NCBI RefSeq assembly: GCF_003966335.1
Contig: NZ_CP034549.1
Span: 2,490,001-2,522,000, forward strand
DNA from: Nonlabens ponticola
GTDB taxonomy: Bacteria; Bacteroidota; Bacteroidia; Flavobacteriales; Flavobacteriaceae
Length of the DNA stretch: 32,000 nt
Reading direction: 5' to 3'
Position 1 is the first letter of the stretch. Each line of letters starts with the position of its first letter. Below are positions 28,197-32,000 of this stretch, in pieces. The notes beneath the pieces were generated by a model, which was given only the letters and a program-made list of their open reading frames with translations, made no database searches and had not been told where the DNA came from. The position numbers were made by a program, and so were the translations under genes.

Positions 28197-28281
28197 GGAG
28201 AAGTGGCAGAGTGGTCGAATGCACTGGTCTTGAAAACCAGCGAGGGTCACACCTCCAGGGGTTCGAATCCCTTCTTCTCCG
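28197..28281 (+). tRNA. tRNA-Ser (anticodon TGA)
   Basis: I folded this manually. The acceptor stem is GGAGAAG/CTTCTCC with discriminator G, and there is a D-arm. The anticodon stem CTGGT/ACCAG carries the loop CTTGAAA. There is a long variable arm and a T-arm with GTTCGAATC. CCA is not encoded. Confidence 0.95.
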
Positions 28282-28285
28282 CATA

Positions 28286-28324: not shown

Positions 28325-28502
28325 CGGTTGACAAATTAGTTGACCTATTTCTTCAAATCAGACTCCCTTTCTCGTATTTAATTCATAGCTCATAATCAGA
28401 AACTACCCTTGTCTAAGAATAAATTAGGTAGCTTTGTATTGAACTTAAAATTTAATATGTGAAGTAAAACTTCTCAAAACTTATTATAGCGTTTAGCTCT
28501 AG

Positions 28503-28610
28503 ATCCAATCGAAATCGCCAATTTTTTGATCTGACAAGCTGTTTTAAACGCGGTGCCCATGGGCGCTGCTGTTTACTCTTGTCATGGTGTTTGGCGATAC
28601 CCGATTGGAT
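28503..28610 (+). other. Extended imperfect hairpin of about 108 nt (possible structured RNA or leader, or a DNA recombination site)
   Basis: I paired this manually. The nested helices, from outermost to innermost, are: 28503-28511 with 28602-28610 (9 bp); 28514-28521 with 28591-28598 (8 bp); 28532-28538 with 28578-28584 (7 bp); 28546-28549 with 28571-28574 (4 bp); 28550-28557 with 28562-28569 (8 bp, 2 G-U pairs). The apex is the palindrome GCCCATGGGC. Confidence 0.6.
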
Positions 28611-28645
28611 AGTAATTCAGTTAGCGCCTTCTTTAATTGGACATT

Positions 28646-29635
28646 ATGATCGAGAATACTTTTAAGCTAGAATTTGACAAAGAGACAGCTACCGAAACTC
28701 AAAAAAAACTAATTAAGCGTTACTGGGATTACGACGCAGAGAATAAAGGCTTTAAAGAAAAGGTAAACTATATTTTTTCAGAAAATAACATGTCAGTACA
28801 GTCTAATCTGAAAGTAATTAATAGACACTCGACCATGAGAATTCAACATATTTGTCAGGTCTGTCTAGATGAATATTGGTTACCGGTATCCTCACGAGCT
28901 AGATTTTTGTCTGGCATCACTGCTCATCATGATATACCTAATTATTTCACCTGTCAGTCCTGTGCTGCTTTACAAAGACTAGAACAACAGCAAAGGGGAA
29001 TAGATAAGAAGATAAAGATTATTAAAACAATCCAGGAAGCTTATGATTCACAACTATACAATTATTTAACAAGCTTTGAATTTGAGGTACTGGTAAAAAC
29101 ATTAGAAGATGATTACTTTAATATTACTTTAAAATATTATGCTAACGAAGGTGTGCATGAGACATTTATTGATGCCATTGATAAGTTAAATGATTTACAG
29201 CTATTATACATCAATCCAAAATCAAAGCATAAATATTATCGAGAGATCCTATACGCAGAAGAAACAAAACAAATACTTTCAGCTATTCCAGGCGGTCATC
29301 GAGATTCCACGTTTAGAATAATAACCGAAGCTGATACACCGTCCATTCATAGTTCTGAGTTTTCAAGTGAACTTAAATTTTTTCTTCATCCAAATAAAAA
29401 TAAATCGGGATTGAGTCCTGATTTTACTACCTTGATAGAAATTAAAGAAGATATTATTTTACGTAAGGGAACAACCTTTACAGCGGGAGGCTGGATAAAG
29501 AACAACGAAGGCATTAATGTTACCATCGTACCTACAGAAAAAATCGTTAATAGGACTCGTAGCATACCATTGAGTAAAGTACCTGAATCGTTGGGAACGC
29601 TGATTAATAATTATTTGAACAACTTAAATGAATAA
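28646..29635 (+). CDS. Hypothetical protein with a 2xCxxC zinc-ribbon-like motif; island gene A
   Basis: ORF of 329 aa from the ATG at 28646, or 332 aa from the TTG at 28637. It has CQVC and CQSC pairs 30 residues apart, then a Gln/Lys-rich helical linker. I recognise no catalytic family. Confidence 0.7.
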   Translation: MIENTFKLEFDKETATETQKKLIKRYWDYDAENKGFKEKVNYIFSENNMSVQSNLKVINRHSTMRIQHICQVCLDEYWLPVSSRARFLSGITAHHDIPNYFTCQSCAALQRLEQQQRGIDKKIKIIKTIQEAYDSQLYNYLTSFEFEVLVKTLEDDYFNITLKYYANEGVHETFIDAIDKLNDLQLLYINPKSKHKYYREILYAEETKQILSAIPGGHRDSTFRIITEADTPSIHSSEFSSELKFFLHPNKNKSGLSPDFTTLIEIKEDIILRKGTTFTAGGWIKNNEGINVTIVPTEKIVNRTRSIPLSKVPESLGTLINNYLNNLNE

Positions 29636-29666
29636 TCAATATAATTTTTGACTAAATCATTTCTTT

Positions 29667-29975
29667 ATGCTGAAATCTAGTAATGTCCTCGATGAGTTGG
29701 AAAGTTTGTACTGCACCTCAATAGATATTGAATTATTTGGAGTCACCTCTTTTACAGATCTTGATGAAGTGATAGATATGGAGATCGAGACCTGGGCTGA
29801 TCTTGACAAACCAATTTCTGAAATAGAGCGTCTAGCTCAAAAAGCAATAGGCACATACATCTTGACTATGGATGATCCAGATCGCTTACAAGAGTATATC
29901 TGTCGAAAGAAAACTATAGACTTCTTGACAGAAATGAATTCAATCCTGGAAAAACTAAAAATTAGAATAAATTAA
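29667..29975 (+). CDS. Hypothetical small acidic protein (102 aa); island gene B
   Basis: The ATG lies 31 nt after gene A, on the same strand. The protein is Asp/Glu-rich and I recognise no family. Confidence 0.6.
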   Translation: MLKSSNVLDELESLYCTSIDIELFGVTSFTDLDEVIDMEIETWADLDKPISEIERLAQKAIGTYILTMDDPDRLQEYICRKKTIDFLTEMNSILEKLKIRIN

Positions 29976-30113
29976 AAATTGTGCTGAAGTGATCAAAGCG
30001 TTCTTAAGATCTTGCACGAAAGTGATGAACACACATTATAATATTTCTTAGCTTACAAGGTCATAATCATACTTCTCAAATTTTGCTCTGTCCTAGTTTC
30101 GACTAGTTCAAAA

Positions 30114-30337
30114 ACATTTTGAATACGAAAGTTAAATGAAACAGTCGTCGAACTTCAGTAATTTTACAACTCGTTTTAGATAATATTGGTTCTTGAAACG
30201 ATTAAGAGAAAATGGAATTTAAAGCGACCTCGATAAATATCGCTTTTTTACTTTCTGAAATTATCCGCATATAGCATAACGTTTGGAATTGAATCATGTA
30301 AATTATCTGTTTGATTTGACTTTCGTATTCAAAGTAT
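30114..30337. repeat. 224-bp segment bounded by 23-bp imperfect inverted repeats (MITE-like or a long-range RNA helix)
   Basis: The left arm is ACATTTTGAATACGAAAGTTAAA (30114-30136). The right arm is 30315-30337. They match at 20 of 23 positions, with a perfect 15-bp core TTTGAATACGAAAGT. Confidence 0.5.
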
Positions 30338-30420
30338 TGGGTTATTTCCGAGCATTTCTTAGCTACTTCCGATTAAATTAAAATTTGACAGTACTATTGT
30401 TAAGCTAGAGATTCAGATAT

Positions 30421-31815
30421 TTAATAAGAAACTTTACTAGGTTTTACACCCCACGGAACAGGTTGTAGTCCATGTTTCAATGTTGCGCCTTTTGTAGTGC
30501 GATTATAGTATTCGCCATGGTATTCTAGGATATTAAGTAAGGCCAATTCTATGTACCATATGCACAGTTCTAATATCTCATATTTTGTACTCATGTCAAT
30601 TTTATTCAACTTCATTCTTTTTTCGATTTGAGAATGAACTATCATATTACGAACTTCGGTTATCACATCCGGACCGTCTAATGCGCGTTTTTGTTCTGAG
30701 ACATAAGAATTCAAACATTTTAATCCAAGAGGTACCTCTGTTTCAATACCTAGGTTTTTGACGATAAGTCTAATTTTGTTTGATGCTGAAATGGAGGATG
30801 CATCTCTTCCTGATAGTAATCCTTTTTTCTCTACTATCCACCAATTATAAATTAGTTCTAAAGCAGTTTGAGCCATAATGATAGAACTTTCAGTAAAGCC
30901 AACATTGTTATTAGCATTCAAGTACCAATGTATTGCCGTGAAAAGAAAATCTTCGTCATGTGGGTCGGACGCGACTTTCTTATAGTTTTTCCACAATTGA
31001 TCTATTGAAAGGTAAATTCTACTAGGACACCAGGTTTGCGGTAAACTAAACGGTTCTATGAGATAGCTTGTGTAATCCGTCCATAAAGGCTCGTCTTTGT
31101 TCAGACCTTGCGCCATGAATCCAGAAATACGTCTACCATTTATAAAAGAAAGGAAATTGTTTACCAGCCTGAAAATGCTTTGAGATTCACTTAAATTTAG
31201 TGGCTCCTTATGGCAGGTCAATTTACCTGATGCCAATATATCAAAACCTCCCAGATTTTCTAATCCTTTTAGTTTTTTATCGTAATCATATACAGAATCG
31301 ATAATGAACTTGTAATTCTCATCCCCAAATGTTAATCTTGATTTTGATGTTCTATTCTCAATAACTCCTATTTTTTTTTGGACTGGATAACCATACAGCC
31401 GCCGTAAGTTAGGTATCGAAAAAACTATCTCATTTACTTTTACCGATGGGTCGCCAGTATATGTCTCGAAGGCAAAAACACCCTCAAATGTTATACTACC
31501 AAAATTGTCAAAATTGACTAGAGTGAGAAATGCCTTGCCTGCAAGATTATCATTAATGACCACCTCAAAGTATTCAAGTTTCCTGAAAATCTCAAAACTG
31601 AATTTATTCAGAAGCTCCGGTTTACCCAAAAATCTTACACCAACCAATGGTAGCCAGTGAAATGAAAATTTACCAAGGCAGGAAATTGAAACATTGTCTG
31701 AAACTATTTCAAATCTTCCATCATGAATAATAATACTAGCATTAGTCGTGGGAAGGGTAATGTGTTCTATAATTGTTGGGTATCTGCTATCCGGATCCGT
31801 AATATCTGAGGTCAA
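30421..31815 (-). CDS. HEPN-type (R-x4-H) domain protein with a large uncharacterised N-terminal domain, possibly ApeA-like; island gene C
   Basis: RNMIVH is encoded at 30634-30651, within a helical C-terminal region. The N-terminal region of about 230 aa is beta-rich. The TTG at 31815 is the only canonical start after the in-frame stop at 31849-31851. Confidence 0.7.
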   Translation of the reverse strand: MTSDITDPDSRYPTIIEHITLPTTNASIIIHDGRFEIVSDNVSISCLGKFSFHWLPLVGVRFLGKPELLNKFSFEIFRKLEYFEVVINDNLAGKAFLTLVNFDNFGSITFEGVFAFETYTGDPSVKVNEIVFSIPNLRRLYGYPVQKKIGVIENRTSKSRLTFGDENYKFIIDSVYDYDKKLKGLENLGGFDILASGKLTCHKEPLNLSESQSIFRLVNNFLSFINGRRISGFMAQGLNKDEPLWTDYTSYLIEPFSLPQTWCPSRIYLSIDQLWKNYKKVASDPHDEDFLFTAIHWYLNANNNVGFTESSIIMAQTALELIYNWWIVEKKGLLSGRDASSISASNKIRLIVKNLGIETEVPLGLKCLNSYVSEQKRALDGPDVITEVRNMIVHSQIEKRMKLNKIDMSTKYEILELCIWYIELALLNILEYHGEYYNRTTKGATLKHGLQPVPWGVKPSKVSY

Positions 31816-32000
31816 AATATTATTATATCTGTTTATTGAAAAATTGCATCATTTAAAAGTATCGATCTACAACTGCATACTTGTTGGGACAATGCTTTAT
31901 TTGTAATACTTTTTTATAGCAATTCTCCATCCATTCGTTTAATGCATCCTTTGCAGACAAATAAATCATCTCAGTAAATTTCTATTACCACTTCATTTTC

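Follow-up and report, generated by a model that had tools for sequence, protein, structure and literature searches.

This locus raises the question of what is encoded by a gene of Nonlabens ponticola whose product carries, in a helical C-terminal region, an R-x4-H motif of the kind seen in HEPN ribonucleases (RNases). The window, i.e., the whole stretch of 32,000 nucleotides (nt) analysed here, covers positions 2,490,001 to 2,522,000 of contig NZ_CP034549.1, and the gene occupies 30421..31815 on its minus strand, where an open reading frame (ORF) of 464 amino acids (aa) plus a stop codon was called. A sequence-only reading of the DNA had described the ORF as a C-terminal HEPN domain behind an unknown N-terminal domain, translated from a non-ATG codon and resembling the single-gene ApeA defence proteins. 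The gene is real and intact. Its product is a new member of the YopA family, which is already catalogued and functionally uncharacterised, and it does not represent a new kind of system. We favour, with moderate confidence, a model in which it is a stand-alone YopA-family HEPN RNase that responds to a signal of infection or stress and serves as a single-gene anti-phage module.

An identical database protein (P0001) is listed as a hypothetical protein of N. ponticola and is named 'YopA central domain-containing protein' in UniRef. It carries PF26308 (YopA_M) and PF27216 (YopA_C), as do nearly all of 120 homologues among the matches listed; these assignments are precomputed Pfam matches, and the Pfam version that was scanned directly contains neither model. 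The earlier description of the N-terminal domain as unknown does not hold, since Pfam already has entries for this family, YopA_M plus YopA_C, and the model ApeA_NTD1 is matched by a few relatives. The assignment to the YopA family is also supported by homology to the yopA gene of Bacillus phage SPbeta, which tblastn matched over residues 16-458 of 464 (95% of the query) with 25.9% identity and E=3e-23. A word-indexed protein search returned 342 homologues, and an exhaustive search returned 3,087 clusters at 50% identity with E<=0.001, among them 1,175 with E<=1e-30. Nearly all of the 60 genomic loci that were recovered belong to Bacteroidota, with single metagenome-assembled genomes labelled Cloacimonadota and Leptospirales. 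Some family members are labelled as HEPN or ApeA-N-terminal proteins by InterPro-derived names; the name YopA supplies no mechanism.

The HEPN-type motif lies on the minus strand at 30634..30651, where CGTAATATGATAGTTCAT, read from 30651 to 30634 (CGT AAT ATG ATA GTT CAT), encodes R389-N-M-I-V-H394. The exact codons agree with the sequence-only reading, both for the 464-aa minus-strand ORF and for the position of the motif, which is of the RN-x3-H catalytic type. In shuffles of the window protein R-x4-H arose by chance in 30% and RN-x3-H in 2.3%, and the motif alone is weak evidence; it gains its meaning from conservation. R389, N390 and E320 are invariant in all of 90 divergent relatives, SPbeta YopA included, and H394 is present in 89 of the 90. 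The conservation of these arginine, asparagine, histidine and glutamate residues spans relatives with a mean column identity of about 30%. E320, encoded at 30856..30858 (minus strand), lies in a conserved Q-T-A-L-E-L helix and is the second invariant polar residue of the helical domain.

Structure prediction with AlphaFold gave a confident model, beta-rich to residue 247 and helical after residue 271, with a predicted local distance difference test score (pLDDT) of 89.2 for the full-length protein and 85.6 for residues 262-464 alone. The helices span residues 271-429, and the all-helical C-terminal domain as a whole, about residues 268-432 (30520..31014, minus strand), corresponds to Pfam YopA_C. 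The motif forms the C-terminal end of helix 381-393, and the two segments that had been predicted to flank it as helices do so in the model, MAQTALELIYNWW falling within helix 307-330 and ILELCIWYIELALLNILEY within helix 408-429.

Relatives of the window protein connect this domain to known HEPN families. Among 30 close relatives, 25 matched Pfam HEPN_Apea at E<=1, and four of these exceeded the gathering score (26.0-27.5 versus 24.4 bits); among the 90 divergent ones, 19 matched it at E<=0.01. Profile positions of about 41-135 of 136 are covered, equivalent to residues of about 342-437 in the window protein, so that the motif is included. Single divergent relatives among the 90 matched the HEPN families RiboL-PSP and DUF4145, and the PADLOC models Cas13a, CARF_HEPN, Cas13-ApeA and RT-HEPN weakly matched several relatives (Cas13-ApeA two of them, E=0.014). 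When the isolated C-terminal domain was compared with the PDB in Foldseek, the top match was a HepT toxin (7bxo_F, E=0.43, probability 0.72, template modelling score 0.48), and HEPN proteins accounted for nine of the 50 top matches (7ae6, 1o3u, chains of 7bxo, Csm6 6tug, 8xdj and 8xeh). On the strength of transitive homology and residue conservation, the C-terminal domain is very probably an Apea-like HEPN domain.

A number of results weigh against this assignment or against the defence model built on it. Direct Pfam, NCBIfam and PADLOC scans of the window protein found no HEPN, ApeA or defence model and returned nothing but a chance hit to PIN_TASOR (E=0.17); that no family was recovered is explained by the absence of YopA_M and YopA_C from the Pfam version scanned. 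Foldseek against the PDB gave no match to the C-terminal domain at E<=0.001, with generic helical bundles interspersed among the HEPN matches, and full-length searches against the PDB and BFVD likewise gave nothing at E<=0.001. Sequence searches of the PDB with full-length and C-terminal profiles returned a chance FlgH match or nothing. SPbeta yopA was the only tblastn match among 50,697 phage records, a search of IMG/VR viral contigs with Bacteroidota-branch-specific patterns yielded no family member, and a literature search found no experimental paper on YopA function. Finally, at many loci the gene stands among housekeeping genes, in some cases purely so, and no clear defence island surrounds it. 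The HEPN domain proposed in the sequence-only reading is thus supported indirectly, by the HEPN_Apea matches of the relatives (with a few to ApeA_NTD1), by the conserved residues, by the helical C-terminal half of the model and by HepT as the top fold; the window protein itself matches none of the HEPN-clan or ApeA profiles and has no significant fold match.

Alternatively, the C-terminal domain could be a helical bundle without catalytic activity, which would be HEPN-like and bind a ligand or have no relation to HEPN, and the protein could be a non-nuclease such as a structural or regulatory accessory protein of a prophage. The lack of a significant HEPN match for the window protein in sequence or fold, the generic bundles mixed into the fold matches and the frequency of R-x4-H in shuffled sequences all fit this explanation. 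It accounts poorly for the conservation of R, N, H and the glutamate at about 30% mean column identity, the Bacillus phage protein included, which points to catalysis or to a strictly required site. Independent HEPN models from Pfam and PADLOC moreover match the same region in many relatives, and we regard the non-catalytic explanation as very unlikely.

The N-terminal domain, about residues 20-260 (31036..31758, minus strand), overlaps YopA_M. The sequence-only reading had called this region beta-rich and the model agrees: strands run from residue 28 to 247 together with two helices, and pLDDT is mostly above 90. Conserved residues are N25, G33, W54, F132, P135-N136, R160, G189-G190, G227 and W245. 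Foldseek searches of the PDB and BFVD gave weak beta-rich matches to the region, for example phage tail and baseplate proteins. ApeA_NTD1 was matched by homologue P0093 over residues 96-255 (25.7 bits versus a cut-off of 25.5) and by two of the 90 divergent relatives (best E=5.6e-07), i.e., by three of about 120 relatives tested, and the Pfam scan gave no ApeA_NTD1 match for the window protein. A distant relationship of the N-terminal domain to ApeA_NTD1 is plausible but thinly supported. We infer that it is a sensor or regulatory domain.

One branch of the family, in Pedobacter and Mucilaginibacter (Sphingobacteriaceae), has proteins of 612-648 aa with the same N-terminal and HEPN domains and the motif RNALVH. 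These proteins are extended at the C-terminus by about 170 aa, which contain a GNAT-like 'E/QGRGFSS' motif (L034 9944-11782, L036 9953-11827, L038 9953-11830, L041 9953-11899 and L053 9953-11830). The extension gave Pfam acetyltransferase (GNAT) matches below threshold (E=0.02-0.15) and no sequence match in the PDB.

The YopA-like gene starts with a TTG codon. An in-frame stop lies 12 codons 5' of the TTG at 31813..31815 (minus strand), and between the two there is no further ATG, GTG or TTG, which leaves this TTG as the single canonical start. In-frame ATG codons occur solely at positions 234, 314, 391, 401 and 408; a codon check confirmed the earlier statement that codon 234 is the first ATG and that the stretch before it contains no Met. 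Translation from the TTG, as proposed earlier from position 31815, is also supported by comparison. The closest orthologue (P0002, Nonlabens sp. Hel1_33_55, 84% identity) has TTG at the same position, with its first ATG at codon 57, and the 60 bp upstream of the TTG are conserved between the two. In 45 of 58 other homologous ORFs the equivalent position is ATG, and homologues of 445-470 aa have their first residues aligned no more than a few positions away from the TTG. Since the Hel1_33_55 orthologue shares the TTG and 45 of the 58 others have ATG, we judge it a credible start, lineage-specific yet conserved, and no annotation artefact. The absence of Met from the N-terminal 233 residues is unremarkable for the family: its probability from the protein's own composition is about 0.08, and homologues have 1-5 Met in this region. 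We speculate that a weak TTG may hold down the level of a potentially toxic protein. Scans for sigma-70-type promoters and terminators around the gene stayed at background level, the scan tool containing no Bacteroidota-type promoters. Upstream of the TTG, within 31830-31875 on the minus strand, TACTTTTA occurs about 47 nt before the start codon; it resembles TAnnTTTG, the -7 element of Bacteroidota promoters, and is a candidate for such an element.

The gene lies in a region of low GC content, 32-34% from 29 kb to the end of the window (last 3 kb) versus about 38-46% over most of the rest. A tRNA-Ser(TGA) gene was detected at 28197..28282 (plus strand), downstream of which the GC content drops; upstream of it are ordinary genes, for a TonB-dependent receptor, DUF4249, a nitroreductase and DUF218. 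Between the tRNA and the YopA-like gene there are two plus-strand genes without a Pfam match, a 332-aa orphan gene at 28637..29635 (55% identity to its Hel1_33_55 neighbour) and a 102-aa ORF at 29667..29975 that is convergent with the YopA-like gene (68% identity to the Hel1_33_55 neighbour). The 332-aa protein is confined to Nonlabens, with four matches in 5.8 billion: N. ponticola, N. agnitus, Nonlabens sp. Hel1_33_55 and one metagenome contig. Two CxxC pairs occur in its sequence, and a stretch of about 45 residues on its C-terminal side (about 251-296) is nearly identical between species. The 102-aa ORF is also confined to Nonlabens, is present as a remnant in N. agnitus and is not conserved beside other family members.

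Comparison with other Nonlabens genomes suggests movement of a block of genes. The syntenic locus of N. agnitus has kept the upstream genes, the tRNA-Ser, a homologue of the 332-aa gene and the 102-aa remnant, and the YopA-like gene is absent; synteny with N. agnitus stops inside the 332-aa gene. The block 28412-32000, containing the 332-aa, 102-aa and YopA-like genes, recurs in Nonlabens sp. Hel1_33_55 (L061 9816-13421, 72-84% DNA identity), where its neighbours are genes for heavy-metal efflux and P-type ATPases and not tRNA-Ser. The block continues past the end of the window at 32000, and no convincing att-like direct repeats of the tRNA-Ser 3' end were found inside the window.

A 32-nt inverted repeat (30113-30144 and 30307-30338) lies in the 445 bp that separate the 102-aa ORF from the 3' end of the YopA-like gene; it is 88% complementary, has its arms 162 nt apart and is single-copy in the window. 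It folds as a long stem (z=-2.3), has no Rfam match and falls where the shared block, alignable everywhere else, fails to align with Hel1_33_55. The repeat could be an insertion resembling a miniature inverted-repeat transposable element or a bidirectional terminator.

Across 62 loci no conserved neighbour was found, the largest cluster of neighbour proteins being common to four of them. A bulk scan of 148 flanking proteins gave mostly unrelated families with a minority of the defence type, in which retron/DRT reverse transcriptases, Old-family ATPases and Mrr account for two each and a CfrBI endonuclease for one; at a single locus the neighbours include EndoU, PIN and DUF2806. SPbeta yopA is annotated as a separate gene, apart from its neighbours, and the accessory genes around it include yopC with a RES domain and the superinfection-exclusion gene yopH. 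The YopA-like gene looks autonomous, horizontally mobile and accessory, which is compatible with a role in defence or as a toxin and proves neither.

A toxin role would make the protein an addiction or toxin-antitoxin-like toxin, or a stabilisation gene of a mobile element, whose HEPN RNase retains a genomic island or prophage; inhibition would come from the protein's own N-terminal domain or from a small neighbour that has escaped recognition. In favour of this, the closest folds are those of HepT toxins from HEPN/MNT pairs, and the gene moves as part of a block, standing beside tRNA-Ser in one Nonlabens and beside heavy-metal efflux genes in the other. There is also a lead from a 467-aa 'minimal ApeA', Bp1ApeA (WP_076938731.1), for which transformation of E. 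coli failed and toxicity was presumed (10.64898/2026.03.20.713152); its link to the YopA family is a lead only. Against the toxin explanation, the 62 loci share no conserved adjacent gene that could be an antitoxin, no MNT-type nucleotidyltransferase is among the commonest Pfam families of the 148 neighbours, and the 102-aa neighbour is convergent and Nonlabens-confined. We consider the toxin explanation unlikely and retain the anti-phage RNase as the preferred model.

The gene and its start, the family, the conserved residues, the predicted two-domain fold, the lack of a conserved partner and the patchy accessory distribution form the observed basis of this model. Dimerisation, RNase activity, trigger, target and a role in defence are added from established HEPN biology and from the ApeA preprints. 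In the model, the N-terminal domain, beta-rich and about 250 aa long, would be packed against the C-terminal Apea-like HEPN domain, and two copies of the protein would dimerise through their HEPN domains. The dimer would unite both sets of R389, N390 and H394 into one composite, metal-independent RNase site, which the N-terminal domain would keep inactive until a signal linked to infection or stress is received. The activated enzyme would then cut RNA. By analogy with ApeA, PrrC/RloC and HepT, its likeliest targets would be phage RNA or the anticodon loops of tRNAs, and RNA cleavage would stop phage multiplication by abortive infection or direct restriction.

A broader proposal, which we put forward only tentatively, is that the YopA family as a whole may be a distinct and widespread single-gene anti-phage system in which a beta-rich sensor gates an Apea-like HEPN RNase. 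It would take in the roughly 3,000 clusters, which are common in Bacteroidota, as well as SPbeta, and its sensor would be unrelated to the helical sensor of E. coli ApeA. The Sphingobacteriaceae branch would have gained a possible GNAT-like domain, which would point to tRNA-linked targets.

If the model is correct, the family would represent a small HEPN defence module that needs no partner and escapes PADLOC 2.0 and NCBIfam; it is abundant in Bacteroidota, a phylum with few experimental tests of phage defences. It would also supply a function for SPbeta YopA, the product of a gene of unknown role in a model prophage, and comparing its beta-rich sensor with the helical one of ApeA, each driving a similar HEPN effector, would show how different signals of infection can be coupled to a single nuclease core. 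At present the result is a well-supported gain in annotation over 'hypothetical protein' and a good candidate for experiments on defence, and it will not surprise a specialist.

Among known proteins, SPbeta YopA (SPBc2p071) is homologous over the full length, with 438 aa compared to 464 aa here. Both proteins have the RN-x3-H motif (RNKIVH in SPbeta) and the invariant glutamate, and both genes stand alone. They differ in setting: yopA is prophage-borne in a Firmicute, whereas the gene described here is chromosomal in a member of the Flavobacteriia and lies in a variable stretch of low GC content where no phage genes are visible.

HepT toxins (PDB 7bxo, 7ae6, 8xdj and 8xeh) are the best fold matches of the C-terminal domain, at a non-significant level (E >=0.43). 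They are minimal HEPN RNases of about 130 aa whose R-x4-H site is formed across the dimer, and they are paired with an MNT antitoxin that AMPylates HepT. Unlike the window protein, HepT has no N-terminal domain.

The predicted beta-rich fold agrees with the published description of ApeA-NTD1 plus Apea HEPN proteins (PF18862, PF18739), in which about 300 N-terminal residues form a domain that is 'mostly beta strands', has conserved aromatic residues and is joined to an Apea-type HEPN domain (Anantharaman et al. 2013, PMC3710099). Both Pfam models are matched by relatives of the window protein, with some scores over the threshold. Neither is matched by the window protein or by its closest orthologue, and Pfam files their group separately as YopA_M plus YopA_C.

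The name Apea invites comparison with the ApeA defence system of Gao et al. 2020. The experimentally validated Ec1ApeA (WP_000706972.1, 601 aa) and an Ec2ApeA-like protein (583 aa) were recovered from E. coli genomes by means of the cloned DNA given in a preprint supplement. In its genome the Ec1ApeA gene (L063 2501-4306) adjoins an IS2 transposase and a MobQ relaxase; the tail-gene cluster of a P2-like prophage surrounds the Ec2ApeA-like gene (L064 2501-4252). In single-sequence scans neither protein matched Pfam HEPN_Apea or ApeA_NTD1, and because of this the labels of the Pfam 'Apea' models and of the ApeA defence system are not interchangeable.

If the window protein were an ApeA in the strict sense, it would form doughnut-shaped oligomers, be activated by deoxydinucleotides or RNA structure and cleave tRNA anticodons. 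The single-gene layout would fit, as would the motif, which is RNKITH in Ec1ApeA and so of the same RN-x3-H pattern (10.64898/2026.03.20.713152). Relatives also reach the Apea-named models of Pfam, and two of them the PADLOC model Cas13-ApeA at the weak level given above. Three YopA-family profiles were aligned by hhalign with Ec1ApeA, Ec2ApeA or a 15-sequence alignment of the Ec1ApeA family. In non-significant alignments the QTALEL helix with E320 was placed opposite the invariant glutamate of WIALESL in the E. coli ApeA family. The same comparisons also count on the negative side: probabilities did not exceed 0.4% (i.e., they stayed below 1% for all three query profiles), and apart from these helices the alignments cover the motif alone (e.g., AIVQIRNAIVHSQEE versus RIYRTRNLIVHTGKT). 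PADLOC ApeA matched neither the window protein nor 30 relatives, NCBIfam ApeA did not match the window protein, and the E. coli proteins themselves do not reach the Pfam models that relatives of the window protein do. Strict membership was rejected on the lack of a model match, the hhalign probabilities and the different architecture, and we give it very little weight. The resemblance noted in the sequence-only reading therefore survives for the Pfam and Anantharaman architecture of ApeA-NTD1 plus Apea HEPN and not for the characterised ApeA.

ApeA proteins of about 600 aa are predominantly alpha-helical, with N-terminal, Mid and split-HEPN domains, and form decamers or dodecamers according to cryo-electron microscopy; HepT was found to be the closest structural relative of their HEPN domain (10.64898/2026.01.26.701840). 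The window protein, in contrast, has 464 aa and a beta-rich N-terminal half, and homology between the two is undetectable beyond the motif. They are alike in being encoded by a single gene, in having a C-terminal HEPN domain with RN-x3-H and in having a large N-terminal region, which in ApeA regulates the nuclease. Because of the single-gene layout and the RN-x3-H HEPN effector, ApeA is the best available functional analogy, and by this analogy the YopA-like protein may be an RNase that is switched on by a ligand and cleaves phage RNA or the anticodon loops of tRNAs.

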